Positions 5,590 to 56,527 are shown, counted from the first letter of the stretch. The stretch is DNA of 64,000 nt from an uncultured Gammaproteobacteria bacterium (GCA_964597575.1 CAZQXB010000001.1:206792-270791), one strand, 5' to 3'. Program-made: numbers and translations. Notes: generated by a model from the letters alone, not told the origin.

Positions 5590-7689
<2,100 letters not shown>

Positions 7690-9805: not shown

Positions 9806-9811
9806 GAAAAG

Positions 9812-9823
9812 TGTGTTATACTA
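9812..9823 (+). promoter_or_regulatory. Extended -10 promoter candidate (TGtTATACT) upstream of giant protein A.
   Basis: The motif tgTGtTATACTata lies about 55 nt upstream of the 9880 start. Similar TGnTATACT motifs recur upstream of 29132, 35519, 38939 and 52396. Confidence 0.3.
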
Positions 9824-9879
9824 TACGTAGCGTTGGTGTGGCATTTTTAGATTGAGCCATATCCGCTCTGTTTTTTGGT

Positions 9880-22057: not shown

Positions 22058-22141
22058 GGGCAAGTGGCGGAACTGGCAGACGCACTAGCTTCAGGTGCTA
22101 GCGGCCGCAAGGTCATGAGGGTTCAAGTCCCTCCTTGCCCA
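22058..22141 (+). tRNA. tRNA-Leu (anticodon CAG) with a long variable arm.
   Basis: Acceptor stem GGGCAAG/CTTGCCC. Anticodon stem CTAGC/GCTAG with loop TTCAGGT. T-arm GGGTTCAAGTCCC. Discriminator A. CCA is not encoded. Confidence 0.85.
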
Positions 22142-22217
22142 CACAAGATTATTTATATCTTTATTTTAATGTGAGAAGTACCACCGAGGTACCTCTTGCT
22201 CTGTATTTATTATTGGT

Positions 22218-34158: not shown

Positions 34159-34189
34159 TGTTATGATATGTTCAATAATATTCATATCT

Positions 34190-35434
34190 ATGGAAAAAAT
34201 AAAACGCATTGCAGCTCGTGAAATTCTTGATTCTCGTGGAAATCCAACCCTCGAAACAACTCTTTTTTTGGAAAACGGAGGTCGGGTTGCAGCCTCAGTG
34301 CCAAGTGGAGCGTCGACCGGTTCCTATGAAGCGCACGAGTTGCGTGATGGGGGTAAACGATATGGGGGAAAAGGGGTGCAAAAGGCAGTAGATCATGTGA
34401 ATCGGGTGATCGGACCAAAAATTATTGGTTTTTCTGTAACCGACCAGGCAGGTATTGATCAGGAACTACTCCACCTTGACGGGACGAAGGAAAAGAAGAG
34501 GCTCGGTGCCAATGCGCTTTTGTCGGTATCTCTTGCTGCGGCTCGGGGCGGAGCTCTTGCTGAAGGGCTACCACTGTATCGGTATTTACGCGATAAATCT
34601 GGTTTAAGGGAGCGAGGGTGGCGCATGCCACAGCCCATGATGAATGTGATTAATGGTGGCCGACACGCGACGAATGGTCTTTCGGTTCAAGAATTTATGA
34701 TTCTGCCAAAACATCGGAATGTGGTGGAGCAGGTGAGAATTGGTTCAGAAGTATTCCATGCGTTGTCGCGTCTGCTTGAGAAAAAACGATATGCTACTGG
34801 GGTTGGTGATGAAGGAGGGTTTGCGCCGGCATTTCCCGAAAATGAATCTGCGTTAAAGTTTCTCATGACTGCAGTGAAGGAGGCCGGCTATACTCCTGGT
34901 GTGCATGTGGTTTTTGCTCTTGATGTGGCGGCGTCTGAGTTCCATAGCCGACGCGGATATTTGTTTGAAGGGAAGCGTCCTATCTCTTCCGAAAAAATGC
35001 TTCAGGCCTTTTCTGTTTGGATGAAGAAATATCCTTTGGTTTCCATTGAAGATCCGTTTGCTGAGGATGATTGGTCTCCGTGGGTCGAAATGACGAAAAA
35101 ATATGGTTCGCGCCTTGCGATTGTTGGGGATGACCTGTTTGTTACGAATATCGATCGTTTAGGGGAGGGAATAAAACAAGGTGCTGCAAATACTATTTTA
35201 ATCAAACCAAATCAAATTGGAACATTAAGCGAAACATTTGCGACGATTCGACAGGCAAAATCGGCAGGGTATCGTGTCATTGTATCTCATCGTTCTGGGG
35301 AGACTGCTGATACGTTTATTGCGGATTTGGCGGTAGCGGTGCATGCGGACGGCTTAAAAGCCGGTTCACTGTCTCGGAGTGAGCGGGTAGAAAAGTATAA
35401 CCGACTGATGCAAATCTCCCTCGAAGTAGGTTAA
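34190..35434 (+). CDS. eno: Enolase (phosphopyruvate hydratase).
   Basis: MEKIKRIAAREILDSRGNPTLE... is a canonical enolase N-terminus, and the protein is full-length. The start was set at MEKIK. Confidence 0.95.
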   Translation: MEKIKRIAAREILDSRGNPTLETTLFLENGGRVAASVPSGASTGSYEAHELRDGGKRYGGKGVQKAVDHVNRVIGPKIIGFSVTDQAGIDQELLHLDGTKEKKRLGANALLSVSLAAARGGALAEGLPLYRYLRDKSGLRERGWRMPQPMMNVINGGRHATNGLSVQEFMILPKHRNVVEQVRIGSEVFHALSRLLEKKRYATGVGDEGGFAPAFPENESALKFLMTAVKEAGYTPGVHVVFALDVAASEFHSRRGYLFEGKRPISSEKMLQAFSVWMKKYPLVSIEDPFAEDDWSPWVEMTKKYGSRLAIVGDDLFVTNIDRLGEGIKQGAANTILIKPNQIGTLSETFATIRQAKSAGYRVIVSHRSGETADTFIADLAVAVHADGLKAGSLSRSERVEKYNRLMQISLEVG

Positions 35435-35518
35435 GAGGGTTTATGCACATACCTGTTAGGGGTATGTGTGCTATACTATATAAGCATTAGCTTCTTGATT
35501 TTTTTAGTAGATTTTTCT

Positions 35519-38500
35519 ATGGTTTTATTTCGGAAACCTTTTTTGCATATTTCATGGAGTCGTGTTGCGGCTCTGATATTTTTTCTTTCTATAGCGGGGG
35601 TTCTTTTTTTTGCACGCACTCTCCCTGCACTTGTTGCTGTAAATACATGGCCATTTGATACTGCTGGGGATTATACATACAATACTTCCCTTGTCGATGT
35701 AACCGGTGGAGTTGCTACACTTGTAGCAATAACCGGGGGTACCACGACCACAAATCATAATGATAACGGAAGCACAGAATTTGGTGGGGGGACTTCAACA
35801 AGCATCCAGTGGGTGAGTGCCTCAAGTTCACTCCGGATATCGTCGGGAGTAAGTGGTACTTTTACTTCGGTTGTTATTGATGCCGGAGTAACAACCACCT
35901 GGCAAACATTGGCGTGGACACCTTTTGCCCCTTACGGAAAAGAACTTGTTACAAGTACTGCGGAAACTCAGTATAGTTTTGGTAACTTTACAAATACCGG
36001 CGCGATAGCAGCATACTGGCGTTTGAATGAATCGAGTTGGAATGGTACGACAAACGAAGTTCAAAACGCTGTTTCAACGACCTTGCATGGCTCGCGTCGT
36101 GGGGGTGCGACGACAAGCGGTACGGCCCAATTTGGGCGTTCCGGGTCCTTTCCTTTAGCAAATACGTCGTATGTTCATGTAACAACTACAAACTTTTTGG
36201 CAGATTCTCAGTCGGGTACGATTATGGCGTGGATTTTTCCAACAAGTACCGGTGGGGGAACATTCCGTCATTTTTTTGCCTCAACTGATGAGTCGACATC
36301 CGATGGTAACGGCAATCGCGTTGTTTTGGGAATGCTTGATTCTGCAAATCAGTTATTATTCTACCATGCAGATGGTTCTGGTTTTGATTCAAATATCGGA
36401 AATACGGTGATGGCAGCAAATGAGTGGCATCATGTTGCTATTACTAATAGCGGGGCAGCAAACGGCTATCGTATGTATGTTGATGGGGTTCTGCAAACAC
36501 TAACTACTTTCGGTGGGGGAAATTCCGGTGATTGGTTTGCTGATGCAAATGGTTCTGGGGCCACAAATAGAGATAACATCACAATTGGTGGTATACGTCA
36601 TATTACACCTGACCTTTTGTTTGATGGTCTTGTTGATGAGTTGGTGATATTTTCACAAGAATTATCCACCTCAACGATTCGTGACCTTTACCGCCGTGGA
36701 GCACAGCGCTTGAGTTTTCAGGTTCGTTCCTGTGATGATAGTGCATGCAGCGGGGAAACGTTTACAGGCCCAGATGGCACGGCTGCGAGTTACTATACAG
36801 AATCTACCACCACAACGGTTGGCCTACCGTCGAAGAGTTTAATCACTCTCCCAGCTAATCGATATTTTCAGTATCAGACACTATTTAACACAACTTCAAC
36901 CGAACTTTCTCCTGGACTTCTTAGTGTTACAACTACAGGTTTTGCCACAACAACCTACTCCACAACAAGTCCAACGATTATAAATAATACGGGTTTCAGT
37001 TTTAGAAATATTTCTGCGTTTACACATTCACTCGGCGCTGGGAATGCTGGTACGGTGGAGTATCAGGTAGCTGTTGGGAACACCTCTACATTCTATTACT
37101 GGAATGGGAGCAATTGGGTTACAGCAAGCGCCGGATATCCAACGCACACCAATACGGTTTCAGAAGTAAATTCAAACATTATTCAGCTTGATACTGATGT
37201 CGGTGTTGGCACCTTCTACTTTCGCGCCTTTCTCGCTTCGAACGGAGCGCAGCAGGTTCAGCTTTCAGAGGTTGCGATCATGACAACGTCAACCATTTCT
37301 TTCGCGGCAAGCAGTGGTTCAGCAAGTGAAGGAAGTGGTACGAGTACGATTGTTGTTCAGCTTGATGAAGTTTCTTCGAGTACGATGACGGTTAATTATG
37401 CGGTTACCGGAGGAACAGCAACTGCGACAAGTGATTATGTTCTTGCAAGTGGTACTTCTACTATTGCGGCTGGAAGCACAACAACAAGTATTAGTATTCA
37501 GCTTGTCGATGACTCTGTTATCGACGGGAGTGAGACTGTCATCCTCACACTTACAAATGCGATCGGAGGGCTTCTTGGGTCAACCACAACATTTACCTTA
37601 ACCATTACCGATAATGATACTGCAGGGGTGACACTCAATCCTTCTTCTGTTTCTGTAACAGAAGGTGGTTCGGATACTTCGTATACTATTGTTTTGAATA
37701 CTCAGCCATCGAGTACTGTAAGTATTACACTTGCCACCTCAACAGGCGATATTTCTTTGTCGACTACCTCAATTACATTTACTACAAGTACTTGGAATTC
37801 TGCGCAGACGATTACGGTTACTCCTGTAAATGATAGTGATGTTGAGGGTACACACTCTGATACTATCACCCATACCGCAAGTTCAACCGATTCGAATTAT
37901 CATGCCATTTCGATTTCTAATATGTCGGTGAGTGTTACTGATGATGATGCATCATCTTCTTCTGGAGGCGGAGGCGGAGGCGGAGGTGGTGGTTCATTTA
38001 TTCCTACGACACCAGCACCTCAGGGCTTTGGCGGAACTGGTAATGGGGAAATTCGAGCAGGGGAGGGAGCGGCGACAAACCTCCCTGTTTCCGAAGGTTC
38101 CTTCATTGATGCTACTAATCGAGCGGTAACAATATCGTTTGCTGTGGAAGGTGCGACTCGCATGGCGCTTTCAAACCAACCTGATTTTGCGCTGGCTACT
38201 CAAGAGCCGTATCGTCCGAGCGTCATTTGGGACGTGTGTGGGAATTCGACCGTATGTCCTGAGGGTATTTATACTCTGTATGCACGATTTTATAACAGCT
38301 ACGGAGTTTCTGGAAATGTTATTTCCCGCCAAATTCGATATCGACCAACTTCAAGCTCGGTTACCCTATCACCTAGCTTAGTTCGACTTTTGAAGTCTGC
38401 TGATGACCCTAAAGTGTTCGAGGTTATTAATGGTGAAAAGCGCTGGCTTGTAAACGAACAGGCGTTTCTTTCGCGAGGGTATTCATGGGGGGCGATTGAG

Positions 38501-38836
38501 GTGGTTCCCTCAAGTGTTCTTCGGGCGTTGCCAGATGCGGGCCAAATTTCAACTCCTGCATTATTACCACCTACAAATAGGTCAATTTCACCCGCGTTCC
38601 GTTTCTCTTCATATCTTTCGTTTGGCTCGCAGGGAGCGGCCGTTCGAAGCTTGCAGGTTCTTCTTGTGGATTTAGGGTACTTCCCTAGAACCGTTCAGCC
38701 AAATGGTGTATTTGGTCCAACTACCCGTGGGGCCGTACAGGCGTTTCAGCGTGCTAACGGTCTTACTCCAATTGGTGTTGTTGGTCCGCAGACTCGCGCG
38801 CTCCTCAACGGAATTTTAAGTGCAAGAGGGGAATAG
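35519..38836 (+). CDS. Giant cell-envelope protein C with an N-terminal TM anchor and a LamG-like (ConA-like) jellyroll domain. Calx-beta domains, a poly-Gly linker, a domain of unknown fold and a C-terminal peptidoglycan-binding (PG_binding_1-like) domain follow.
   Basis: LamG_3 signature ...WHHVAITNSGAANGYRMYVDGVLQ...DELVIFSQELS. Calx-beta signatures (TISFAASSGSASEGSGTSTIVVQLDEVSSSTMTVNYAVTGGTATATSDYVLASGT...; ITDNDTAGV...). G(n) run. C-terminal ...GAAVRSLQVLLVDLGYFP...GVFGPTTRGAVQAFQRANGLTPIGVVGPQTRALL. Confidence 0.8.
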   Translation: MVLFRKPFLHISWSRVAALIFFLSIAGVLFFARTLPALVAVNTWPFDTAGDYTYNTSLVDVTGGVATLVAITGGTTTTNHNDNGSTEFGGGTSTSIQWVSASSSLRISSGVSGTFTSVVIDAGVTTTWQTLAWTPFAPYGKELVTSTAETQYSFGNFTNTGAIAAYWRLNESSWNGTTNEVQNAVSTTLHGSRRGGATTSGTAQFGRSGSFPLANTSYVHVTTTNFLADSQSGTIMAWIFPTSTGGGTFRHFFASTDESTSDGNGNRVVLGMLDSANQLLFYHADGSGFDSNIGNTVMAANEWHHVAITNSGAANGYRMYVDGVLQTLTTFGGGNSGDWFADANGSGATNRDNITIGGIRHITPDLLFDGLVDELVIFSQELSTSTIRDLYRRGAQRLSFQVRSCDDSACSGETFTGPDGTAASYYTESTTTTVGLPSKSLITLPANRYFQYQTLFNTTSTELSPGLLSVTTTGFATTTYSTTSPTIINNTGFSFRNISAFTHSLGAGNAGTVEYQVAVGNTSTFYYWNGSNWVTASAGYPTHTNTVSEVNSNIIQLDTDVGVGTFYFRAFLASNGAQQVQLSEVAIMTTSTISFAASSGSASEGSGTSTIVVQLDEVSSSTMTVNYAVTGGTATATSDYVLASGTSTIAAGSTTTSISIQLVDDSVIDGSETVILTLTNAIGGLLGSTTTFTLTITDNDTAGVTLNPSSVSVTEGGSDTSYTIVLNTQPSSTVSITLATSTGDISLSTTSITFTTSTWNSAQTITVTPVNDSDVEGTHSDTITHTASSTDSNYHAISISNMSVSVTDDDASSSSGGGGGGGGGGSFIPTTPAPQGFGGTGNGEIRAGEGAATNLPVSEGSFIDATNRAVTISFAVEGATRMALSNQPDFALATQEPYRPSVIWDVCGNSTVCPEGIYTLYARFYNSYGVSGNVISRQIRYRPTSSSVTLSPSLVRLLKSADDPKVFEVINGEKRWLVNEQAFLSRGYSWGAIEVVPSSVLRALPDAGQISTPALLPPTNRSISPAFRFSSYLSFGSQGAAVRSLQVLLVDLGYFPRTVQPNGVFGPTTRGAVQAFQRANGLTPIGVVGPQTRALLNGILSARGE

Positions 38837-38888: not shown

Positions 38889-38938
38889 GCCGGATGATAT
38901 GCTTGTACGTTATACTGTGGCATAGTCCCTATAAAATT

Positions 38939-40507
38939 ATGAATACCCTTTTTCCTCGAAAAACTGCCCTCCTTATTTTGGATGGTTTTGGTCTTGCCCC
39001 ATTTGATCGCCCAGGAAATGCTATTCGCCCGGATACTGCTCCTCATATTTTTGAGTATAAGAAAAAGTACACGGCCACGGAATTAAATACCACTGGGGCA
39101 ACAGTGGGTCTCTTTCCAAATCAAAAGGGAAATTCCGAGGCCGGACATTTAACTATCGGGACTGGTCGAATTGTAAAACAAGATTTGGTACGAATTTCTG
39201 AAGCGATTAGTAATGGTACTTTTTTTAAGAATGAAGCCTTTAAACAGGCTACTCATCACGCCAAAAAATATCATACGGCGGCACACATTTTCGCCCTCCT
39301 TACTGATGGAAACAGTGCTCATGCATACCCAGAACATATTTTTGCCACACTTGAGTATCTTCGCCGCGAAGAAATTCGTGAAGTGTACCTGCATCTTTTT
39401 ACCGATGGTCGAGACAGCTCTCCGCATAATGCTCTGGTGTTTCTTCAGGCGCTTCGGGGTCATATGGTTGGGGGGGAGAAAATCGCGACAATGATGGGTC
39501 GCTACTATGGTATGGATCGAAATAAGACATGGTCGCGTACGAAAGAAGCTTATGAAGCTATTGTTTTTGGTAAAGGGGGTCATGTTGCCAAAAGTGCCGA
39601 GGAGGCGATAACTCTTGCCTACAGTCGAGGTGAGACCGACGAGTATATTACCCCAACCGTTATTGTTGATGACGAATCAAAACCTATCGGAACCGTAGAT
39701 GATAACGATGTTATTTTTTTTACAAATGCACGCAGCGATCGGGCAAGACAATTGACTAAAGCCTTTGTGCAAGAGGATTTTCAGAAACTAAATCCAGGAG
39801 CTTTTCGACGCTCTCGGGTACCAAAAAATATCCGTTTTGTTGCCATGACTGATTTCGGACCGGATTTGCCAGGAGTGTTCACTGCTTTTCCAAGTCCAGA
39901 TGTACCAAATGCTTTGGCTAAAGCAATTGGAGAGAGCTATCGCCAATTATTTATTTCTGAAACAGAAAAGTATGCTCATGTAACATACTTTATTAATGGT
40001 GGGTACGCTGAACCAATAAACGGGGAAAAACGAGAATTGGTTGCCTCGTCTCCAATTTTATCGTATGCAGATTTACCGGAAATGAATGCGGCAGTGCTTG
40101 CTGATCGAATTGCAAGTGCATTTAAAGAAGATGAATATGATTTTGTGTGTACTAATTTTCCTAATGCTGATATGGTGGGGCATACGGGAAATCTTTCAGC
40201 AGCCGAAACTGCGGTTCGGGCCTTGGATAACGCCGTGGCTTTGGTGGTTGAAACGACTCTCTCGCTCGGTGGTCAAGTAATGATTGTTGCCGACCATGGA
40301 AATGCTGAAGAGATGATTAATCTGGCCACTGGGGATATTATGACTGAACACACCAGAAACCTGGTTCCTTGTATTATTATCGGGAAAGGGTTTGAGAAGA
40401 TGCCGATAAAACCCGCAGGAACATTGGCTGATGTTGCTCCAACCTTGCTTCACATGATGGGACTTCCTCAACCCGAGGAAATGACAGGAAAATCATTATT
40501 ATTGTAA
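38939..40507 (+). CDS. gpmI: 2,3-bisphosphoglycerate-independent phosphoglycerate mutase (iPGM), copy 1.
   Basis: ALLILDGFG ... NSEAGHLTIGTGRIV ... iPGM phosphatase and transferase domain motifs. The start was set at MNTLFPRK. Confidence 0.9.
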   Translation: MNTLFPRKTALLILDGFGLAPFDRPGNAIRPDTAPHIFEYKKKYTATELNTTGATVGLFPNQKGNSEAGHLTIGTGRIVKQDLVRISEAISNGTFFKNEAFKQATHHAKKYHTAAHIFALLTDGNSAHAYPEHIFATLEYLRREEIREVYLHLFTDGRDSSPHNALVFLQALRGHMVGGEKIATMMGRYYGMDRNKTWSRTKEAYEAIVFGKGGHVAKSAEEAITLAYSRGETDEYITPTVIVDDESKPIGTVDDNDVIFFTNARSDRARQLTKAFVQEDFQKLNPGAFRRSRVPKNIRFVAMTDFGPDLPGVFTAFPSPDVPNALAKAIGESYRQLFISETEKYAHVTYFINGGYAEPINGEKRELVASSPILSYADLPEMNAAVLADRIASAFKEDEYDFVCTNFPNADMVGHTGNLSAAETAVRALDNAVALVVETTLSLGGQVMIVADHGNAEEMINLATGDIMTEHTRNLVPCIIIGKGFEKMPIKPAGTLADVAPTLLHMMGLPQPEEMTGKSLLL

Positions 40508-40511
40508 TGAT

Positions 40512-42083
40512 ATGGCTCGACCAAAACCAGTGGTGCTCGCAATTCTGGATGGCTGGGGAGTTGCGCCTGACGCTGAAGGTAACGCCATTACTCGTGCGCG
40601 ATTACCACATATTAGTCAGTTTATCCGCGAATACCCAGTCATGACCCTCTTTGCTTCTGGTACAGAGGTCGGTCTTTCTTTTGGAGAGATGGGAAATTCT
40701 GAGGTGGGACATTTAAATATCGGTGCTGGTCGTGTGTACTACCAAACATTTCCGCGCATTCAAAAAAGTATCTTAGACGATTCTTTTTTTACCAATAAGG
40801 CTTTTCTTGAAACGATCGAGCAAGTGAAGGCAAAAAAAACAGCACTTCATATCATGGGACTTGTTTCTCCTGGAAATGTGCATGCAAGCGATAAACATTG
40901 TTTAGCTCTTTTGAAATTGGCCAAACAGCACCGAATCAAAAATGTCTTCGTTCATGTATTTCTTGATGGGCGCGATACGGTATATAACGGGGGCAAAGAA
41001 TTTGTGGCCGCTCTTGAAACAGAAATGCGTCGCATGGGGGTCGGAAAAATTGCCAGCATCTCTGGACGATTTTATGCGATGGATCGCGATAATCGATGGG
41101 AGCGTATCGAGCAGGCCTACCGAGCTATTGCTGAAGGGAAGGGGCCTCTTATGCCAAGTGCGGCTTTGGCCATTGAATCTTCTTATGAGCGCGGAGTATA
41201 CGACGAAGAATTTGTTCCTGTTGTTATTGGCAAAGACGGTCCTACTGGCAAGGTTTCTTCTGGGGATGGCATTATTTTTTTCAATTTTCGCCCTGATCGT
41301 GCGCGAGAACTCACCAAAGCTTTCGTATTGCCGAGTTTTGCAAAATTTGAACGAACGTATATTGAAAATTTGGCTTTTGTAACCATGACCGAGTATGAAA
41401 AAGAAATTCCGGTCTCGGTGGCATATCCGCCACAAATCATTCATGGGTGTTTAGCCGAAGTGATCAGTGCTGCTGGTTTGAAACAGCTTCATGTCGCTGA
41501 AACAGAAAAGTATGCTCACGTTACTTTCTTTTTAAATGGAACGGTTGAAGAACCATTTCCTGGAGAAACGCGTCAAATTGTTCCGTCGCCCAGAGTAGCC
41601 TCGTACGACCAGGCACCAGAAATGGCCGCGGCTGACATTACGAAAATGGTCGTTGCGGCAATTGAGGGAGGAGAGTACGATGTTATTATTTGTAATTTCG
41701 CGAATGCAGACATGGTTGGGCATACGGGAAATTTTGAAGCCTCAGTAAAAGCGTGTGAGGCGATTGATCGATCGCTCGGTCTCATTGCCGATCATGTGCT
41801 TGCCAAAGACGGTGTGTTATTGATTACAGCAGACCACGGAAATGCGGAAGAAACGGTGAATTTGCACACAGGGACGATGGATAAAGAACACAGTAATAAC
41901 CCTGTTCCATTCATGATTATTGGGCACCGTTTTCGAGGCGAGGTAGGGCCGGCAGGTGATCCAATTAATGGTGACATCAGTTTACTTTCACCCGTTGGTA
42001 TTTTGTCTGATGTCGCGCCAACCATGTTGTCTATTTTGGGAATCAACCAACCTCCGGAAATGACGGGTCGGCCACTTATTTAG
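40512..42083 (+). CDS. gpmI: 2,3-bisphosphoglycerate-independent phosphoglycerate mutase (iPGM), copy 2, a diverged tandem paralogue.
   Basis: VVLAILDGWGVAP ... NSEVGHLNIGAGRVYYQ ... SETEKYAHVTFF ... ADMVGHTGN. It lies 5 nt after copy 1. Confidence 0.9.
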   Translation: MARPKPVVLAILDGWGVAPDAEGNAITRARLPHISQFIREYPVMTLFASGTEVGLSFGEMGNSEVGHLNIGAGRVYYQTFPRIQKSILDDSFFTNKAFLETIEQVKAKKTALHIMGLVSPGNVHASDKHCLALLKLAKQHRIKNVFVHVFLDGRDTVYNGGKEFVAALETEMRRMGVGKIASISGRFYAMDRDNRWERIEQAYRAIAEGKGPLMPSAALAIESSYERGVYDEEFVPVVIGKDGPTGKVSSGDGIIFFNFRPDRARELTKAFVLPSFAKFERTYIENLAFVTMTEYEKEIPVSVAYPPQIIHGCLAEVISAAGLKQLHVAETEKYAHVTFFLNGTVEEPFPGETRQIVPSPRVASYDQAPEMAAADITKMVVAAIEGGEYDVIICNFANADMVGHTGNFEASVKACEAIDRSLGLIADHVLAKDGVLLITADHGNAEETVNLHTGTMDKEHSNNPVPFMIIGHRFRGEVGPAGDPINGDISLLSPVGILSDVAPTMLSILGINQPPEMTGRPLI

Positions 42084-43209
42084 CGAGAAGGGGGAGTACC
42101 AATGCTTCCGCATCTTTTAAGTTGGTGTGCGATAAAAGCAGTCGCGCCTGGTGGGCATTGCCCTCTGGGTGAAGGCTCTGTAAAAGTTGTTTTGCATCAT
42201 CAGTCGAGCGAGTTGTTCGAAGAATAACATGAACCAATTGCGGAGTATTTGGGTCCTCAATAAAAAGAAGGATCTTTTTTGCTTCTGGCGCATTGGTAAT
42301 AAGCTCATCAATACTCTCAAGAGCATCAGCGACATTGGAACCACTGCGAGTTAATTCATCCCGCGTAACCGTGCTCGTAACGGTTTGGGTGCTGGGGTCG
42401 TGAGCCAGGTGTGAGAGGATACTTCCCCACAATTTAAGCGTGCTAATACGTTTGGTGTAAAAAAGCTGACGCACAATATGCCCTCGATCCGCTCCGTTTT
42501 CAATAAGTTCGCTCGCGGTGCGCAACGTAGCCGGAGCCAGGGTTCCCGATTTAAAACTGCGGGTGGCGGCAATAATACCTGTAAGGAGCATGGTGGCTGT
42601 TGTTTCGTGAATTGGTTCTTTGCTTATATGTTTAAATAATTCGTAGCACACCTCAGCGATTGTCGTTTTTGTAATATCAATAATATTGATGTGTCCGTAG
42701 CGGGTATGTTCGGTATTTCGGTCAATCGCGATGACCGGAGTTTCCTGAAACAGCGAAGTGTTGTTTTTGTAGGTATCATGAAGACTGTCAAGCGTTGGGG
42801 CGCCAAGCACAAACACCACATCGTAGAGAAATGGAGATTGCGCAGTTGTTACCAGGTGATGATCAATCGTACCTTGTTTTGGTGTAACCATGATCCGAAG
42901 CTGGTCATCTTTGACGTCGTAGCTTAAATCCTTTACTCCGTGGTCGCGCACATTGATCGTGATGACAAATTTTTGCTGAGGGGGGAGAAAAGGTTTGATG
43001 GTGTCACTTTGGGGTAAAAAGTGATAGGGATGATCTTTCGGAAGATCGGTTCCAACAATGTCAATTTGTCGACCTGGACGAGCAAAAAAGCGCGCACAGG
43101 CTAAGGCGCTACCAAGGCCGTCCCCACCACTTTCCCCAGGAAAAACAATCAGCACTCTTGCGGCAGAGGCCATTAGGTGGGCAACTTGTTCATATGCGGA
43201 AATGGCCAT
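42076..43209 (-). CDS. DHH-superfamily phosphoesterase (NrnA-like oligoribonuclease / pAp phosphatase family).
   Basis: The N-terminal VLIVFPGESGGDGLGSALA resembles the NrnA hhhxHxxPDxDxxGS motif, with a DHH motif (GTIDHH) and a C-terminal DHHA1-like region. The 3' end overlaps the gpmI copy 2 stop by 8 nt. Confidence 0.6.
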   Translation of the reverse strand: MAISAYEQVAHLMASAARVLIVFPGESGGDGLGSALACARFFARPGRQIDIVGTDLPKDHPYHFLPQSDTIKPFLPPQQKFVITINVRDHGVKDLSYDVKDDQLRIMVTPKQGTIDHHLVTTAQSPFLYDVVFVLGAPTLDSLHDTYKNNTSLFQETPVIAIDRNTEHTRYGHINIIDITKTTIAEVCYELFKHISKEPIHETTATMLLTGIIAATRSFKSGTLAPATLRTASELIENGADRGHIVRQLFYTKRISTLKLWGSILSHLAHDPSTQTVTSTVTRDELTRSGSNVADALESIDELITNAPEAKKILLFIEDPNTPQLVHVILRTTRSTDDAKQLLQSLHPEGNAHQARLLLSHTNLKDAEALVLPLLAK

Positions 43210-43867: not shown

Positions 43868-44082
43868 TAACGCACCCTCCTAAAGACGCGTTTCGCGTCT
43901 TTACCCGCACCTGCCCGAATTGGCCGGTGAAGGTAGAAAACGCCAAACCCTAACTCGAGAGTATAGAAGATTATTCTTTTTTTGTCAATAGAGCCAAATA
44001 TACCGCTTTGTGTATTAAAAAAGTGCTGAATAAAGCAAAAAACTTGCCTTTTATCGCTCTTTTTTATACAATAATAAATACT

Positions 44083-47000
44083 ATGAAAGAATTGTCAAAA
44101 GCCTTTGAGGCAAAACAGTACGAAGACTCTATCTATAAGCGCTGGGAAGAAAGCGGGTTTTTTAACCCTGATGTTTGTGTAGAAAAGGGGGTTACTGACG
44201 CTCGTGCTGAGGCGTTTACGGTTATTCTTCCGCCTCCAAATGTTACCGGAACTCTTCATATGGGTCACGCGTCCATGCTTGCCATTGAAGATCTTATGGT
44301 TCGGTACCACCGTATGAAAGGAGAGAAGACTCTTTGGCTTCCAGGAACCGATCATGCCGCCATTGCAACACAATCAAAGGTAGAAAAAATGATTAAAGAA
44401 AAAGAAGGAAAATCGCGCTACGATTTAGGCCGCGACCCTTTTCTGGCCCGAGTTCACCAGTTTGCGAAGGAATCCCATGATACGATTGTGAATCAGTGTA
44501 AAAAAATGGGCTCTTCGCTTGATTGGTCACGAGAAGCGTTCACGCTCGATGAGCCACGGAATCGGGCGGTACGAACCATGTTTAAAAAGATGTACGATGA
44601 TGGTCTGATTTATCGTGGGTCTCGTATTGTGAACTGGGATCCAAAAGGACAAACGACCATTTCAGACGATGAGCTTGTGTATGTTGAAGAAAAAACAACG
44701 TTTTATTATTTCAAATATGGGCCGTTTGTTATTGGAACTGCCCGTCCTGAAACAAAATTCGGCGATAAGTATGTGGTAATGCATCCAGACGATGAACGGT
44801 ATGCTGCGTATAAGCATGGTGATACCATTTCGGTCGAATGGATTAATGGGCCGATTACCGCCACAATTATTAAGGATACTGCCATTGATATGGCATTTGG
44901 AACAGGTGTCATGACGATTACCCCCTGGCACAGCGTGGTCGATTTTGAGATTGCTGAGCGCCACGGGCTCGAGAAAGAACAGATTATTGATGAGGCGGGG
45001 AAGCTTCTGCCGATTGCGGGAGAGTTTTCTGGTCTCCCCATATCAAAGGCGCGTGCCGGTATTGTGGAAAAATTGCGCACTAAGGGCCTTCTTGTAAGAG
45101 AAGAAGACTATGCTCACCAGGTAGCTACGGCTGAACGCACCGGTGCTTTGGTTGAACCACAAATTAAATTGCAGTGGTTTGTGAATGTAAATAAAGAATT
45201 TGAGCGCGATGGAAAAAAGACGACGCTTAAATCTCTTATGCAGGAGGCAGTAAAGAGTAAAAATATAGAAATTCTGCCCGATCGTTTTGAAAAGATCTAT
45301 TTTAGTTGGATTAATAATTTGCGTGACTGGTGTATTAGTCGCCAAATTTGGTACGGCCATCAAATTCCTGTGTGGTATCGCGGAAGCGAAATATATTGTG
45401 GCATCACTCCGCCTGCAGGAGAGGGGTGGGTGCAGGATTCAGATAGCCTCGACACCTGGTTTTCTTCAGGGCTCTGGACGTTCTCTACTTTAGGTTGGCC
45501 AGAAACGACGATTCATTTCGTGCGCCATGGGGAAGCAGAAAATAACGCTGCGAATATTGTTGACGACGGCACTGGTCCACGATCTTTTCCTCTTACAAAA
45601 AAGGGGCGAGAGCAGGTGAAAAAAACCGCCAAAGCGCTTGCGAAACAATCGATCGGTGTTATTATTTCTTCTCCCGTTCCCCGCGCTAAAGAAACCGCGG
45701 AAATTATTGCTTCAGAAGTTGGCGTGGAAATTATGTATGACGAAGCTCTCCGAGAAATTGGAATGGGCGATCTTCTCTACACTTCTCAAGATGAATTTCA
45801 TGCCAAACGTGGAGATTTTGATCGCTGGCACCACGATTCACCACACGGTGTCGAATCCTACGATGCACTTAAAGCACGTACTGCGGCATGTTTAGAAAAA
45901 ATTCTCGAAACGTACCGAGGTAAAACCGTTGTCATTGTGTCGCACGGAGACCCTATTGCTACCATGAAAAAACTCGGCACAAAATTACCTGATGGTGTGT
46001 ACGATTTGCCAGACACCGGTTCCGCCACGACCTGCACGTTTAATAATGCAAATACCCAGTCGACCGACTTCTCGGTATTTCACCCAACCTCAGTACTCGA
46101 GACCGGATATGACATCATCTTTTTTTGGGTGGCCCGCATGATTCTCATGGCAACATATGCGTTAGATCAAATTCCGTTTCGTACGGTGTACCTCCATGGA
46201 CTTGTGCGTGATGCTGAAGGGAAAAAAATGAGCAAATCCCTTGGAAATATTATTGACCCGCTCGACATGATCGAGAAGTATGGAACCGACGCTACACGTT
46301 TGTCGCTTCTTGTGGGGAATACTCCTGGAAACGACCTAAAACTTTCCGAAGAAAAAATTGCTGGATTTAGAAATTTTACCAATAAAATCTGGAACATTTC
46401 TCGCTTCATGCTTTTGAACATCGAAACGCCGCAGGCAGCAGTTACATGTCCAGAGCCAGAAACAGCGACCGATGCTTGGATTCTCTCTGAACTTTCAGCT
46501 ACGATTGAAGCGTACAGCGGACACCTTGATCAATTTGAGTACTCACAAGCAGGGGAGTTGCTTCGTGCGTTTACGTATGATACGCTGGCTGATTGGTATC
46601 TTGAACTTGCAAAACTTGAAGGGAGAAAAGATGTGTTACTCAATTATATTTTGAACACCCTCCTTACGCTGTGGCATCCGTTTATGCCATTTGTGACAGA
46701 AACAATCTGGCAAGAAATGTACGGCAAGGATGCGTTTCTTATGGTGCAGCGTTGGCCGGAGATAAAAAAAGTGAAGAAGTCAAAAAAAGAAAATCCGGTC
46801 ATGTCCGTACAAAAGGTGGTTTTAGCACTCCGTCAGTTAAAATCCGATTATCGTATTTCAAAAGCAGAAGAGGCCAGTATTGTGGCTGATAAAGGTGTGA
46901 AAAAAGAACTTGAATCGTTCCTTCCGCATATAGCGAAACTTGCCGGTGTAGTTACCATGACGTTTGCCTCAGAAATTCCAGATGGTGCCGTACATACGTT

Positions 47001-47244
47001 GGTACAGGGGGTGGGTAAAGTTACACTAACAGTAAAAGGACAGGTGGATACCGCAAAGGAAAAGATTCGTATTCAAAAAGAAATAGACTCAGTTGCGCCG
47101 TACCTCCAGGCCCTTAAAGGAAAACTTTCAAATGAAAGCTTTGTGTCGAAGGCACCGCCGCAAGTGATTGAGATTGAAAAGAAAAAACTTGCTGACGCGG
47201 AAGAAAAATTAATAAAACTTACGGAGCAACTCGCTTCACTATAA
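44083..47244 (+). CDS. valS: Valyl-tRNA synthetase carrying an in-frame insertion of about 190 aa: a histidine-phosphatase (phosphoglycerate-mutase superfamily) domain.
   Basis: HMGH (HIGH), KMSKS, tRNA-binding and the C-terminal coiled-coil are all present. Between the conserved ...WFSSGLWTFSTLGWPE and FHPTSVLETGYDIIFFWVARM blocks (normally about 7 aa apart) lies HFVRHGEAENN...SSPVPRAKETAEII...VVIVSHGDPI. The start was set at MKELSKAFEAKQYE. Confidence 0.9.
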   Translation: MKELSKAFEAKQYEDSIYKRWEESGFFNPDVCVEKGVTDARAEAFTVILPPPNVTGTLHMGHASMLAIEDLMVRYHRMKGEKTLWLPGTDHAAIATQSKVEKMIKEKEGKSRYDLGRDPFLARVHQFAKESHDTIVNQCKKMGSSLDWSREAFTLDEPRNRAVRTMFKKMYDDGLIYRGSRIVNWDPKGQTTISDDELVYVEEKTTFYYFKYGPFVIGTARPETKFGDKYVVMHPDDERYAAYKHGDTISVEWINGPITATIIKDTAIDMAFGTGVMTITPWHSVVDFEIAERHGLEKEQIIDEAGKLLPIAGEFSGLPISKARAGIVEKLRTKGLLVREEDYAHQVATAERTGALVEPQIKLQWFVNVNKEFERDGKKTTLKSLMQEAVKSKNIEILPDRFEKIYFSWINNLRDWCISRQIWYGHQIPVWYRGSEIYCGITPPAGEGWVQDSDSLDTWFSSGLWTFSTLGWPETTIHFVRHGEAENNAANIVDDGTGPRSFPLTKKGREQVKKTAKALAKQSIGVIISSPVPRAKETAEIIASEVGVEIMYDEALREIGMGDLLYTSQDEFHAKRGDFDRWHHDSPHGVESYDALKARTAACLEKILETYRGKTVVIVSHGDPIATMKKLGTKLPDGVYDLPDTGSATTCTFNNANTQSTDFSVFHPTSVLETGYDIIFFWVARMILMATYALDQIPFRTVYLHGLVRDAEGKKMSKSLGNIIDPLDMIEKYGTDATRLSLLVGNTPGNDLKLSEEKIAGFRNFTNKIWNISRFMLLNIETPQAAVTCPEPETATDAWILSELSATIEAYSGHLDQFEYSQAGELLRAFTYDTLADWYLELAKLEGRKDVLLNYILNTLLTLWHPFMPFVTETIWQEMYGKDAFLMVQRWPEIKKVKKSKKENPVMSVQKVVLALRQLKSDYRISKAEEASIVADKGVKKELESFLPHIAKLAGVVTMTFASEIPDGAVHTLVQGVGKVTLTVKGQVDTAKEKIRIQKEIDSVAPYLQALKGKLSNESFVSKAPPQVIEIEKKKLADAEEKLIKLTEQLASL
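45504..46077 (+). other. Histidine-phosphatase-superfamily domain inserted into ValS (RHG...R...SHG catalytic signature).
   Basis: RHGE(A)ENN, LTKKGREQ, ISSPVPRAKETA and VSHG motifs in the order expected for PF00300-type phosphatases. Confidence 0.75.
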
Positions 47245-50234: not shown

Positions 50235-50432
50235 ATGCCACGAGCTAAAAAAGAGCCCGTTGAACGGGTCACAATTAAGCTTCCGAAGAGTGTTGCTGCG
50301 TATTTTCGCAAAGCATTTCCCCATGGTCGGCGAAGTGATTTTGTGCAGGATTGCATTTTGCAGTACCGGCATAACCAGGAAGTTACAGAAATGGAAGAAG
50401 CCCTTCGGACGGTTACTAAAAAAAGACAATAA
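50235..50432 (+). CDS. Small ribbon-helix-helix (CopG/ParD-like) DNA-binding protein, possibly an antitoxin or regulator.
   Basis: ERVTIKLPKSVAAYFRK has a beta-strand-then-helix pattern typical of RHH proteins. It is the first gene of a compact 3-gene AT-rich cassette after argS. Confidence 0.45.
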   Translation: MPRAKKEPVERVTIKLPKSVAAYFRKAFPHGRRSDFVQDCILQYRHNQEVTEMEEALRTVTKKRQ

Positions 50433-50445
50433 ATTTTAAAGGGGT

Positions 50446-50685
50446 ATGCAAGAAACTCTACCCAAGGAGGTGGAGGAACGGATTCGCGAAGCGTGTAAAG
50501 AAACAGATGAAAATACAAAAAAACTGTACGATTTTCTGGTGGGTCGGCTAGGGAAAGAAGCGGTGAGCGAAATCCCCCTTCTTTCAAAAGAAGATCAAAT
50601 CCAGGCGTGCCTTGATCATATCATTATTGGTTTCGAGGTAGGGGATATCGTAAAAGAAGATATTGAGCACATTATTAGTACATGA
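50446..50685 (+). CDS. Hypothetical acidic 79-aa protein immediately upstream of the MazF-like toxin, a candidate unconventional antitoxin.
   Basis: Its position and spacing are the only evidence (13 nt after the RHH gene, 12 nt before the toxin gene). No AbrB/MazE-like motif recognised. Confidence 0.35.
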   Translation: MQETLPKEVEERIREACKETDENTKKLYDFLVGRLGKEAVSEIPLLSKEDQIQACLDHIIIGFEVGDIVKEDIEHIIST

Positions 50686-50697
50686 CCTTAAGGAGGT

Positions 50698-51078
50698 ATG
50701 AACCCAATGATAGTAGATTGCGATAACATGTATTGCGGAATCATTCGGCGAGGGGATGTTTTTATGTATGAAAAACACGCGGATGAATTCCTGCCTGTTG
50801 TGGTACTCCAAGATAGTATCCTGAATGAAGGGTTGCCAACCGTAGTTTGTGCCTTGATTGATCTTGGTAAAAAAACGAACGATGGGTTGGTAAATGAAGT
50901 ATTTTTACAAAAAAAAGAAACTGGCTTGCCTAAAGATGGCGTGTGCATGCTTCATAAAATTGAAACGGTTGATCGACGACGCATGGTTGCAAAAAAAGGG
51001 GAGCTGCCACGAGAGCAATTAAAAAACTTATATAAAGCGCTCGATATTACGTTCGGGCGTTTTCGGGATATTGAATAA
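50698..51078 (+). CDS. PemK/MazF-family endoribonuclease toxin.
   Basis: N-terminal RRGDVFMY (RGDI/V motif), LPVVVLQDSILN (the hhVLS block) and PTVVCALID (the vvvPiTs block) are in MazF/PemK order and spacing. The protein is 126 aa. Confidence 0.6.
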   Translation: MNPMIVDCDNMYCGIIRRGDVFMYEKHADEFLPVVVLQDSILNEGLPTVVCALIDLGKKTNDGLVNEVFLQKKETGLPKDGVCMLHKIETVDRRRMVAKKGELPREQLKNLYKALDITFGRFRDIE

Positions 51079-52395: not shown

Positions 52396-54063
52396 ATGTT
52401 TGAGTTAGATTTTCGCAATTTTATCGTGGTCATTTCTCTCATTATTCACGCATCATTGCTGTGGATATTGTATCGGTATGGCCGGAGCACTCCGGGAGGA
52501 AAAGCATACTCAGTGGCAATTTTAGCTATTGCGGGATGGGTATTCCCCATGATTCTTTATCGGAGTCATGTATTTGATGCCACGATTGTTTGGGCACAGC
52601 TTCTCTATATCATGGCTTCCTTTACGTCGACGAGCTTTTTTTATTTTACGCTTACATTTACCCAAGCAAAGCGAGTGAAATGGTGGGGAGAGGTTCTTCT
52701 TTTTTTGGAAAATTTGGCCATTGTTTTTTTGTGTATCCACCCAACCGCCATGATTCAAGGAATCATGTTTTTAGAAGGACGGGAAACAGTTATTATTTGG
52801 GGTCCCTGGTATTGGGTGTATGTGCTCCATATTTCTGCTTTTTTTCTTGCGGGTTTTGTGGTGTTGCGTCGTTACATGCGACACGCAACGGGGTTGGCGT
52901 ATAATCAAGCCAGAAGTGTTTTTGTCGGGTATTTTTGGGCTTCGAACTTGGCCATGGCAACCAACCTTCTTTTGCCCTGGGCTGGTTATTTTGAACTGAA
53001 TTGGCTCGGGCAGTTTTTTTCTACCCTTGTCGCGGTGTCTACCACTTATGCTATTTTGCGCCATCAACTGCTCAACATAAAGGTGATTACCACCGAGTTC
53101 TTTCTTCTTCTCATTAACTCCATCCTCATTATTCAGTTTGCTGCCTCCAGTTCTTTTGCCCGCTTCGTGGTGAATGGGACCATTTTAGGTATGGTCATGT
53201 TTGTATCATATTTGCTTATTCAGAGTGTAAAAAAGGAGGTCGAGCAGAAGGAACAGATGGCATCATTGGCTGATTCATTGCAAAAAGCCAATGTTCGTCT
53301 GCAGGAACTCGATCGACAAAAGACCGAATTTTTATCAATTGCTTCGCATCAATTGCGTACTCCACTTTCGATTATTAAAGGGTATATCGAGCTTATTCAA
53401 GATGGGGCATATGGAAAAATCACCAAGAAAACCAATGAAATTTTGGTTAATATGGATGAGAGTAATGAACGACTCGTAAAGTTGGTCGATGACTTTTTGG
53501 ATGTTTCCCGTATTGAGCAAGGTCGGACAAAATTTGTGTTCATACAAGAAGATTTAAATGCAGTTATTACACCTATTGTGGCTGAACTTCGACAGCGGGC
53601 TGAATCACGGGGACTGAGCTTAGAGTGGAGTCCCTTACAAAAACCCGTTCTTGCAATTATCGATAAAGAAAAGATTTACCATGTGGTCTTCAATTATATC
53701 GATAATGCTATTAAATATACCGAAAAAGGGACTATTACCGTTTCTTTAAGTGAAGAAAAAGAGGGGGTAACTGTTCAGGTTATTGATACGGGTCTTGGTT
53801 TTGATCAAGAAGATTTACCAAACTTTTTTAACAAGTTTTACCGTGGAAATAATGTACGAGGCACCAATGTGAATGGTACGGGTTTAGGGATTTATGTATG
53901 TCGCCAATTTATTGAAGGGCACCAAGGCAAGGTGTGGGCAAAAAGTGATGGGTTAGGGAAGGGGAGCGAATTTGGCTTCTGGATTCCTTTTGACGCAAAG
54001 GGTCGGGAGAACATTCAACCTGCTCCTGAAGATGCACGTTTTATCGTGAATCAATACGGCTAG
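52396..54063 (+). CDS. Sensor histidine kinase (multi-TM N-terminal sensor, HisKA and HATPase_c). No response regulator is adjacent.
   Basis: About 7 TM helices. H-box FLSIASHQLRTPL. N/G boxes (VFNYIDNAIKYT ... DTGLGF ... GTGLGIY). Confidence 0.85.
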   Translation: MFELDFRNFIVVISLIIHASLLWILYRYGRSTPGGKAYSVAILAIAGWVFPMILYRSHVFDATIVWAQLLYIMASFTSTSFFYFTLTFTQAKRVKWWGEVLLFLENLAIVFLCIHPTAMIQGIMFLEGRETVIIWGPWYWVYVLHISAFFLAGFVVLRRYMRHATGLAYNQARSVFVGYFWASNLAMATNLLLPWAGYFELNWLGQFFSTLVAVSTTYAILRHQLLNIKVITTEFFLLLINSILIIQFAASSSFARFVVNGTILGMVMFVSYLLIQSVKKEVEQKEQMASLADSLQKANVRLQELDRQKTEFLSIASHQLRTPLSIIKGYIELIQDGAYGKITKKTNEILVNMDESNERLVKLVDDFLDVSRIEQGRTKFVFIQEDLNAVITPIVAELRQRAESRGLSLEWSPLQKPVLAIIDKEKIYHVVFNYIDNAIKYTEKGTITVSLSEEKEGVTVQVIDTGLGFDQEDLPNFFNKFYRGNNVRGTNVNGTGLGIYVCRQFIEGHQGKVWAKSDGLGKGSEFGFWIPFDAKGRENIQPAPEDARFIVNQYG

Positions 54064-55485: not shown

Positions 55486-55569
55486 GCTCAGGTGGCGTAA
55501 TTGGTAGCCGCACTACCTTGAGGTGGTAGCGCTCGCAAGGGCATGGAGGTTCGAGTCCTCTCCTGAGCA
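55486..55569 (+). tRNA. tRNA-Leu (anticodon GAG) with a long variable arm.
   Basis: Acceptor GCTCAGG/CCTGAGC. Anticodon stem CTACC/GGTAG with loop TTGAGGT. T-loop GTTCGAGTC. Discriminator A. Confidence 0.8.
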
Positions 55570-55644
55570 CATACTATAAAAACCCCATTTACTGGGGTTT
55601 TTATAAAACGTTTTTTGGTAAAAACAGGGAGTGAGTAGGAATCG

Positions 55645-55893: not shown

Positions 55894-55997
55894 AGCTTAT
55901 TCGGTTAGATGAATACTTTTTTAGTATACTCCTTTGTAAAAAGAAAAAGTAGAGAAGGTTTTTCAACAACAAACATCTCCTTTAGGGAGATGTTTGT

Positions 55998-56431
55998 GGT
56001 TTTTCTTCGATAAGCCGAATTCTGTTTTTGCTCTTACGAGCAAATGACGATCATTTCTCTGAGTTTCGATGTTACCATCGAAATCAAACGAGCGAACTTT
56101 TCCAAGCCTTCGCGACGGGCCTGCACCACCATTGTGTTGCGGGTTCGTCGCGAAGACAAGGCTGCTCTTTCTCCAGGTAGGGTTTACCACTCCGATACCT
56201 TGCGGGTCGGAGAGTCTGGTGGCCGTAAAGCCCCAGACACTTTTCACCTTTCTCTCCTCATATAAATATGAGGGGGTAGTATTGTCTCTGTGGCACTTTC
56301 CCGCTTCTCTCTTTTGCAAGAGAGAAGGGTGGGTGTTACCCACTGCCTTTGTCGGTAACCCTTGCGGGCTAACGGGAGTTCGGACTTTCCTCTCTAGCGT
56401 GACTGATAGAGCGATCATCTGAAGATAAAAC
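55998..56431 (-). ncRNA. rnpB: RNase P RNA (bacterial type A-like).
   Basis: The minus strand contains GAGGAAAGTCCGAACTCC (P4 5' strand, consensus GGAAAGUCCGGGCUCC) and AACAGAATTCGGCTTATCG (P4 3' strand, consensus ACAGAAcCCGGCUUA). A terminator hairpin (CAAACATCTCC-ctaa-GGAGATGTTTG) lies at the 3' end and a perfect TTGACA-17-TATAAT promoter at the 5' end. The overlapping ORFs are spurious. Confidence 0.75.
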
Positions 56432-56437
56432 AGGCTT

Positions 56438-56466
56438 ATTATAGCATATTTTTGCCATTTTGTCAA
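56438..56466 (-). promoter_or_regulatory. Sigma70 consensus promoter for rnpB (minus strand: TTGACA - 17 nt - TATAAT).
   Basis: Reverse complement reads ctcTTGACAaaatggcaaaaatatgcTATAATaagcc, a near-copy of the PBP promoter cassette. Confidence 0.55.
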
Positions 56467-56527
56467 GAGTACAGAAGCATACTTTCCGGTTGTCAATTCA
56501 GCCTTCTTGGGTTATGATACGGGGCAT

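Follow-up and report, generated by a model that had tools for sequence, protein, structure and literature searches.

The stretch of DNA analysed here comprises 64,000 nucleotides filed under an uncultured Gammaproteobacteria bacterium (GCA_964597575.1, CAZQXB010000001.1:206792-270791), and is referred to below as the window. It contains a valS gene at 44083–47244 on the plus strand, the 1053-residue product of which is a valyl-tRNA synthetase (ValRS) with a histidine phosphatase embedded in its catalytic domain; all valS features described below lie on this strand. The open reading frame (ORF) runs without interruption from a TTG at 44008 to 47244, and the ATG at 44083 (MKELSKAF...) is the likely start of the gene. 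A promoter-like TTGCCT-17-TACAAT is located upstream at 44044–44072, although such matches are not found above chance. The product passes the NCBIfam valS equivalog models NF004349 (945.8 bits against a cut-off of 704) and TIGR00422 (851.5 against 612), each of which matches the protein in two stretches, stopping and resuming at the insert, and the Pfam families tRNA-synt_1, Anticodon_1 and Val_tRNA-synt_C are recognized around it.

As for the synthetase itself, all parts are kept. The class I HIGH signature is present as HMGH (44257–44268), where H59, G61 and H62 are invariant in a 79-sequence alignment, and is followed by the CP1 editing domain (about residues 181–400; 44623–45282) with the motifs GTARPET (44734–44754) and TPWH..DF (44920–44946), the residues of which are invariant in the corresponding alignment. 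The loop IPVWY...QDSDSL (45364–45450), here denoted site A, is a place of histidine-phosphatase insertion in many other ValRS and isoleucyl-tRNA synthetases (IleRS), and is uninterrupted in the window protein. The last host residues before the insert are GWPE (45493–45504), equivalent to E471 in the ValRS of T. thermophilus (PDB code 1GAX), and this position is denoted site B. Beyond the insert, the C-terminal part of ValRS (46078–47244; assigned from Pfam and the AlphaFold2 model) includes the FHPTSVLETGYDIIFFWVARM strand and helix, the KMSKS motif (46225–46239), the anticodon-binding domain (about 46471–46884; Anticodon_1) and the C-terminal coiled-coil tRNA-binding arm (about 47047–47241; Val_tRNA-synt_C). 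The motifs were checked by translation and, together with the equivalog matches, they bear out the statement in the initial annotation that the flanks of the insertion are intact. From its sequence, the valS product is predicted to charge tRNA-Val.

The insert occupies 45505–46077 (residues 475–665) and adds 191 in-frame codons, comprising a complete histidine-phosphatase domain of branch 1 and a remnant of the native loop (..DFSV). The interval 45504–46077 given in the initial annotation has the correct end, but its start lies one base out of frame. Pfam His_Phos_1 (PF00300) matches the isolated insert with 133.4 bits (E=1e-38; gathering cut-off 21.7) over insert residues 3–160 (45511–45975), and with 128.5 bits inside the full protein, so that the profile search proposed at the outset does place the insert in the histidine-phosphatase superfamily, and the claim of a complete domain in frame with ValS, with all catalytic residues present, holds. 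The quoted RHG and SHG signatures are both found on translation. Alignment with PhoE of Geobacillus stearothermophilus (PDB codes 1EBB and 1H2E), the nearest solved sequence relative (E=4e-15), assigns the phosphate-binding Arg7 and the nucleophilic His8 to the RHG motif (45523–45531), the second arginine of the phosphate pocket to Arg60 (45682–45684) in the SPxxRAxET motif (SSPVPRAKETA), the predicted general acid/base to Glu84 (45754–45756) in REI, and the second active-site histidine to His147 of the SHG motif (His147-Gly148; 45943–45948). Residues R7, H8, G9, R60, E84, H147 and G148 are conserved in 21 of 21 site-B inserts, and are nearly invariant in 99 site-A inserts (50 in ValRS and 49 in IleRS).

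The insert aligns end to end, with 40–43% identity, with free-standing histidine phosphatases of about 188 residues from Moranbacteria, and therefore a whole protein rather than a fragment has been inserted. Assignment as a cofactor-dependent phosphoglycerate mutase (dPGM) was considered and rejected, since these mutases are about 230–250 residues long, with extra substrate-binding segments and a C-terminal tail, while the insert has 191 residues and misses the curated cut-offs (NF038349, 104.6 bits against 225; TIGR01258, 28.3 against 81.7; other dPGM models far below). The models for the alpha-ribazole phosphatase CobC (TIGR03162, 84.4 against 162.9), the phosphoserine phosphatase PspA (NF045917, 71.1 against 350) and SixA (TIGR00249, 37.3 against 74.5) likewise stay below their cut-offs. 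Judged by its sequence, the insert is a member of the His_Phos superfamily of phosphatase rather than mutase type.

The AlphaFold2 model of the insert is confident, with a predicted local distance difference test (pLDDT) score of 90.4 and a predicted template-modelling (pTM) score of 0.88, and the whole insert is explained by the phosphatase fold. Its best matches in Foldseek are phosphomonoesterases of about 200 residues with template-modelling (TM) scores of 0.84–0.89 and a probability of 1.00 (PDB codes 1H2E, 4IJ6, 6E4B and 6NRU); the top set includes PhoE, a novel-type phosphoserine phosphatase, CobC, glucosyl-3-phosphoglycerate phosphatase, and a riboflavin-pathway phosphatase. Chains of dPGM rank lower, with target-normalised TM scores of 0.60–0.69. 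In the model of full-length ValRS (pLDDT 88.9, pTM 0.82), the host part superposes on T. thermophilus ValRS (1GAX_A) with a TM score of 0.84, normalised to the 1GAX chain. The N-terminal junction has no flexible linker in this model, as the first phosphatase strand starts directly after GWPE, and the chain re-enters the host at the strand SVLETGY (residues 669–675), followed by a helix (676–693).

When the sequences are aligned, site B falls on the loop E471–F479 of 1GAX, which links the helix after DTWFSS...GWPE to the strand FHPTSVLETG in the second half of the Rossmann fold. This loop had been described as a conserved element of the catalytic core; it is instead a variable helix-to-strand connection and a hotspot for insertion, at which a close relative carries an ASCH domain. 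The Rossmann topology suggests that the insert exits from the parallel sheet at its N-terminal edge, opposite the aminoacylation site, and for this reason a direct part of the phosphatase in the synthetic or editing chemistry would be unlikely.

That such a composite gene is an artefact or dead, produced by chimeric assembly or a frameshifted fusion or left as a valS paralogue in decay, is effectively refuted by several observations. The reading frame is uninterrupted, and the identical 1053-residue protein is encoded with the same neighbours on an NCBI contig of 913,817 bp and on an independent 14.5-kb Logan contig. The same insertion point is found in about 20 distinct 90%-identity clusters, 50–63% identical to the window ValRS, with shared junctions of the form GWPx|TT(V/I)xF(V/I)RHGEAENN ... 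Q..DL..(F/Y)HPT. The gene order in the window (enolase, iPGM, iPGM, one further gene, a DHH-family gene on the minus strand, valS, tyrS and argS) is common to the site-B relatives and to an insert-free valS locus from Magasanikbacteria, and the insert-bearing gene is hence the orthologue of an ordinary housekeeping valS. With the equivalog cut-offs passed, the motifs intact and the structural model confident, the initial conclusion that neither a fusion artefact nor a chimera or pseudogene is involved is upheld.

In insert-free relatives, only 9–12 residues separate GWP from HPT, which agrees with the original remark that the canonical blocks stand a handful of residues apart, and the net gain in the window protein is about 183 residues (GWPE|TT...QST|DFSVFHPT). 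The alignment with related ValS that had been proposed as a check of lineage specificity thus has a mixed outcome: relatives without the insert do exist, but the insert is not confined to one protein, being present at site B in about 20 clusters. A scan of reference genomes with a junction query was saturated by canonical ValRS through the segment GYDIIFFW and served as a flank control only; matches of about 165–234 nt show contiguous flanks in nearly all of 80 ValRS loci, and no insert-bearing genome appeared in that saturated scan.

The initial annotation also raised the possibility of a mobile insertion. Nothing points to an element that is mobile at present: neither boundary repeats nor a target-site duplication were found at the insert, the GC content across it (0.46–0.48) matches that of the gene, with no shift in composition, and the divergence of the insert tracks that of the host. 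An intein was rejected as well, given that the insert begins with TTIHF and ends with ..DFSV followed by F, and that no Hint or intein family of Pfam is matched. Among 171 pairs of site-B proteins, the insert identity is 0.39, 0.51, 0.59 and 0.73 for host-identity bins from 0.5–0.6 to 0.8–0.9; insert identity thus rises with host identity, and the insert is therefore co-inherited under a real, albeit weaker, constraint.

The CP1 segment shows a pattern of nearest relatives unlike that of the rest of ValRS. Outside CP1, the window protein is closest to the site-B proteins P0274 and P0275 (85–93% in conserved blocks), whereas its CP1 is 75–93% identical to that of the insert-free ValRS P0292 and P0325 and just 31–56% identical to that of P0274 and P0275. 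In separate neighbour-joining (NJ) trees, CP1 and the remaining ValRS are placed differently. The gene is a mosaic, either because CP1 was swapped by recombination or because the lineage of P0274 and P0275 has a very divergent editing domain. Recombination between N- and C-terminal parts at the insertion point was rejected, because a sliding window confines the discordance to CP1 (host residues 181–390) and not to the insert junction.

A HMMER search with a junction-spanning query against 1.84 billion cluster representatives retrieves dozens of proteins of 900–1500 residues. With insertion sites numbered on the window ValRS without its insert (862 residues), the same His_Phos subfamily is found in frame at about four host positions in ValRS and type-2 IleRS: site A, the commonest (433–449, between IPVWY and QDxDTLDTWF), site B, used in the window (474), site C (about 375) and site D (about 590). 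In the samples searched, more than 100 cluster representatives of ValRS and IleRS and 30 metagenome loci carry such inserts, and ValRS and IleRS are the only multi-domain hosts among the closest relatives of the domain; the remaining close relatives are free proteins, either single (about 190 residues) or in tandem (about 420 residues). Those hosts that are IleRS score above the ileS equivalog cut-off and contain DUF5915. Many hosts have two His_Phos copies, and at least three to four are present in P0122, a truncated ValRS; no Nudix domain was found in six large IleRS or ValRS with multiple inserts. The orthologue P0274 is named 'valyl-tRNA synthetase/broad specificity phosphatase PhoE' by the Joint Genome Institute (JGI), and P0391 is labelled 'class I tRNA ligase family protein [Candidatus Moraniibacteriota]' at NCBI. 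The suggestion that an aminoacyl-tRNA synthetase with an embedded PGM-like phosphatase would be unprecedented must accordingly be withdrawn, in view of the more than 100 representatives, the PhoE label and the IleRS of SR1 reported by Kantor et al. in 2013.

The free-standing form of the domain is linked to ileS. In four of five free-standing relatives, the order is argS, an ORF of about 50 codons, His_Phos, one or two small genes, type-2 ileS and recO. In locus L084, a gene of the HIT family (5611–6063) is situated between His_Phos and ileS, and in L089 a NUDIX gene (9426–9962) overlaps the ileS stop codon. In locus L095, where His_Phos resides inside ileS, the order argS ... ileS - recO is kept and the free-standing copy is absent. 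An independent sample was obtained by scanning JGI metagenomes with a domain-only alignment and classifying 80 loci by tblastn. The domain lies inside IleRS in 28 of these and inside ValRS in two, it is located 97–886 nt upstream of ileS on the same strand in six, and no class Ia gene is in view in the remaining 44, mostly short contigs. Considering the 47 metagenome loci with adequate flanks, the domain is inside or just upstream of ileS in 29 (62%). Both argS and ileS are visible in 16 loci, with the domain free-standing between them in four, inside ileS in 12, and in both positions in none. The corresponding cluster in the lineage of the window is valS - tyrS - argS, and here the domain sits in valS.

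The short ORF directly upstream of the free-standing His_Phos is conserved and encodes 48–51 residues (L084, 4845–4994; L086, 4841–4996; L082, 4845–4991), with argS just before it in L084 and L086. Its basic N-terminus followed by a hydrophobic stretch suggests that the product is probably a small membrane peptide. Free-standing tandem-double proteins of the same subfamily (about 400–450 residues) are represented by P0136, P0161, P0171 and about 18 others, and in L090 such a gene lies between fmt, encoding methionyl-tRNA formyltransferase, and a ketopantoate-reductase-like gene.

Taken together, we consider it fairly probable that the window encodes a bifunctional ValRS with an autonomous, catalytically active phosphomonoesterase that was captured from a gene cluster of aminoacyl-tRNA synthetases and is functionally tied to the class Ia synthetases. 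The second activity of the valS product would be hydrolysis of a phosphomonoester. According to the standard mechanism of the family, attack by His8 on the phosphoryl group would yield a phospho-histidine intermediate, with Glu84 as the residue that protonates the leaving group and activates water. As regards origin, the insert would derive from a free-standing gene of the cluster argS - small ORF - His_Phos - ileS - recO, with repeated capture of the same subfamily at about four loops of ValRS and type-2 IleRS; the free-standing proteins of about 188 residues probably represent the ancestral state of the insert. The combination of fusion ('Rosetta-stone') and neighbourhood evidence suggests a route by which a neighbouring gene became an internal domain. 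Insertion would provide 1:1 co-expression and co-localisation of the phosphatase with the synthetase. Because of the repeated capture, and because free-standing and inserted forms exclude each other in the argS-ileS locus, we think that the phosphatase has a functional connection with the class Ia synthetases and is no random passenger. The substrate may speculatively be sought among small phosphorylated metabolites or nucleotides made or consumed around aminoacylation and editing, and the Nudix and HIT neighbours could point towards a nucleotide-type compound, which is equally speculative.

Several observations weigh against this interpretation. No curated equivalog (dPGM, CobC, PspA or SixA) among the NCBIfam profiles is reached by the insert, and its substrate is therefore not inferable from homology. 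P0325 has an ASCH domain (residues 619–717) exactly at site B, and site-A segments without a Pfam match are present in P0319, P0322 and P0371 (125–149 residues) and in P0325 (149 residues); sites A and B thus accept unrelated inserts, and permissive loops could explain part of the pattern with no functional coupling. The free-standing P0058 and the tandem form P0171 are found in other contexts, and synteny kept within one clade may reflect descent instead of selection. NJ trees of hosts and of the inserted domains, in which distances are saturated and deep nodes poorly separated, and the first of which for the hosts was distorted by the mosaic CP1, are compatible with one site-B origin plus losses as well as with several gains.

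A first alternative is that the phosphatase is a passenger, i.e., a housekeeping enzyme tolerated in permissive loops of class Ia synthetases from the candidate phyla radiation (CPR), perhaps with a benefit from constitutive expression and with no mechanistic link to ValRS or tRNA. We regard this as rather unlikely, but to be taken seriously. Besides the unrelated inserts at sites A and B, it agrees with the faster evolution of the insert relative to the host (44% against 68% identity to P0274), with the broad-specificity or metabolic nature of the nearest solved relatives, and with the predicted exit of the insert on the face opposite the active site. It does not readily account for a single subfamily that occupies about four sites across ValRS and IleRS, with up to four copies, for the absence of any further multi-domain host among the closest relatives of the domain, or for the linkage of the free-standing form to ileS and its mutual exclusion with the inserted form in the argS-ileS locus. 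Capture with a functional tie to the synthetases explains these features better, and is preferred here.

The nearest ValRS relatives belong to Magasanikbacteria, Moranbacteria and Uhrbacteria, and the named relatives and shared synteny indicate that the host genome is probably of Patescibacteria/CPR type, similar to Magasanikbacteria or Moranbacteria. Within the 64-kb window, neither a second His_Phos nor an IleRS was found. The tandem iPGM paralogues (38894–40507 and 40512–42083; 537 and 523 residues) lie downstream of the enolase gene (34163–35434), from which they are separated by a large surface-protein gene, and the twin arrangement is kept both where relatives carry the valS insert (L093) and where they lack it (L094). 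The connection drawn initially between these genes and the PGM superfamily of the insert is spurious, since iPGM is a member of the Metalloenzyme superfamily (PF01676/PF06415), with no relation to His_Phos, and since the twin iPGM genes also accompany an insert-free valS. The divergently oriented gene upstream of valS (42076–43209, minus strand) encodes a 377-residue protein with a weak, sub-threshold DHH-family match, and its position is kept in L093 and L094.

Downstream of argS, three small ORFs (50235–50432, 50446–50685 and 50698–51078; 65, 79 and 126 residues) look like a toxin-antitoxin module; the 65-residue product is conserved in L092, where a gene of the PemK toxin family takes the position of the 126-residue ORF. 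Kinship between the small ORF after argS in the window and the 49–51-residue ORF of Moranbacteria was considered and rejected, as the two are unrelated and the window ORFs resemble a toxin-antitoxin pair. The gene at 52396–54063 encodes a sensor histidine kinase that has a 7TM region at its N-terminus (HisKA_7TM, HisKA and HATPase_c), and such a kinase is found downstream of valS-tyrS-argS in three of three site-B loci (window, L092 and L093), while it is not evident in the insert-free L094. Further along, a class A bacterial RNase P RNA is located at 55995–56430 on the minus strand (146 bits), and the 177-residue ORF at 55963–56496 on the same strand is probably spurious because of its overlap with this RNA. 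Two tRNA-Leu genes are present at 22058–22142 (CAG) and 55486–55570 (GAG). Four very large predicted proteins of 1122–1693 residues (9880–14961, 30005–34105, 35468–38836, and 59032–63357 on the minus strand) contain DUF1349, Laminin_G_3, Calx-beta, fn3, SdrD_B and peptidoglycan-binding domains; they probably belong to the surface or adhesion proteins that typify epibiotic CPR bacteria.

A second alternative is that the insert is a tRNA-directed module, which would bind or remove a terminal phosphate of tRNA (3'-phosphate, 2',3'-cyclic phosphate left by ribotoxins, or 5'-phosphate) and couple end-healing or capture to charging. The association is specific to two tRNA-handling enzymes, the His_Phos family acts chemically on terminal phosphoryl groups, and the junctions are rigid and confidently modelled by AlphaFold2; the PemK/MazF-type toxin module nearby in the window and in L092 is a weak, circumstantial hint in the same direction. 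Even so, we find this highly unlikely, as we know of no branch-1 enzyme of the family that acts on RNA ends, the insertion loops appear to lie across the Rossmann sheet from the entry of the acceptor end, the nearest structures are small-molecule phosphatases, and the free-standing form is an independent protein of about 188 residues.

Alternatively, the domain could be a protein phosphatase comparable to SixA, PGAM5 or the C-terminal domain of MutT1, with the synthetase itself as target after modification by a HipA-like kinase toxin, or with the nearby sensor histidine kinase as target. The partial match to the SixA model (37.3 bits), the recurrence of the HisKA_7TM kinase in the three site-B loci, and the phospho-histidine phosphatase activity of the His_Phos domain in mycobacterial MutT1, documented in PMC12407098, are in line with this idea. 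We give it hardly any credence, since the SixA match is under its cut-off of 74.5 and the other equivalog cut-offs are missed too, most relatives occur at ileS loci with no kinase in view, and the best structural matches are metabolite phosphatases.

Among the more far-reaching readings, the embedded phosphatase could be integral to a new type of bifunctional class Ia synthetase, acting on a terminal phosphate in a step that gates or accompanies charging; we regard this as quite unlikely. The domain would then remove a 3'-phosphate or 2',3'-cyclic phosphate from damaged tRNA (or handle a 5'-phosphate), with repair coupled to aminoacylation, or it would destroy a phosphorylated by-product or inhibitor of the ValRS and IleRS reaction. 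If this were true, the phosphatase with the Nudix, HIT and ASCH partners found at these loci and loops would amount to an unrecognised nucleotide and tRNA 'clean-up' system centred on aminoacyl-tRNA synthetases in ultra-small bacteria.

Few enzymes are as conserved as the aminoacyl-tRNA synthetases, and it is rare for an additional catalytic domain to lie within their active-site fold. In CPR bacteria, ValRS and IleRS have acquired a catalytically intact phosphatase many times over, at several loops and in some cases as more than one copy, and the free-standing counterpart is encoded in the same cluster. The pattern is classic 'Rosetta-stone' evidence for an unexplained functional partnership, and offers a testable lead on how translation, nucleotide by-products or tRNA integrity are handled in metabolically dependent bacteria of ultra-small size. 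It is also a natural example of loops in a class I catalytic domain that tolerate insertion of a whole domain, and as such of use in engineering synthetases. Should the phosphatase be only a passenger, the gene is still a clean case of a neighbouring gene captured as an internal domain.

With respect to known systems, the only literature found on a ValRS or IleRS with a histidine-phosphatase or PGM domain is the study by Kantor et al. (mBio, 2013; PMC3812714), where the IleRS of SR1 is reported to be split by a Nudix domain as well as two phosphoglycerate-mutase domains; this subject is treated there in one sentence, with no analysis or function, and nothing was found on ValRS or on function. 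Like the SR1 enzyme, the window protein is a CPR class Ia synthetase with in-frame His_Phos in the catalytic region, but the host is ValRS, the insert is present in a single copy, and there is no Nudix domain. The position is also different, since the window insert follows GWPE at site B, and not the IPVWY/DTWF loop or the site after KMSKS used in the IleRS type. Many IleRS of the Kantor type, with one or two His_Phos copies, were found in this work, and the Nudix domain inserted in the SR1 enzyme recalls the Nudix and HIT neighbours of ileS at L089 and L084.

Among characterised phosphatases, PhoE (YhfR) of G. stearothermophilus shares with the insert the fold, the length class of about 200 residues and the catalytic residues. 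Similar resemblance is noted for other short branch-1 enzymes, namely iPSP (PDB codes 4IJ5 and 4IJ6), CobC (6E4B and 6NRU) and GpgP (4PZ9), with Foldseek TM scores of 0.84–0.89, and the phospho-histidine mechanism is presumably common to all of these and the insert. Unlike them, the insert is embedded in another enzyme, and it is only 19–26% identical to them in structural alignments. The free-standing His_Phos proteins of Moranbacteria (such as P0014, P0027, P0042 and P0043) are the closest relatives outside ValRS and have the same catalytic residues, but they are encoded by separate genes linked to ileS and not to valS.

A branch-1 domain joined to a nucleic-acid or nucleotide enzyme, as here, is also seen in mycobacterial MutT1 (Nudix and His_Phos) and in the RNase H/acid phosphatase Rv2228c, the type of NF005567, which is the second-best NCBIfam match of the insert (90 bits, cut-off missed). 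The pairing of Nudix with His_Phos also recurs in the neighbourhood of ileS. These are end-to-end fusions, whereas the window ValRS has an insertion in its catalytic domain and a different partner enzyme. The isoleucine--tRNA ligases described by NF040702 (N-acetyltransferase domain-containing) are likewise class Ia synthetases with an extra enzymatic domain, but that domain is of the GNAT type and not His_Phos, and the window protein scores 149 bits against 1999. In comparison with all of these systems, the window shows, in ValRS and at site B, a variant of a CPR trait that is widespread but barely described.

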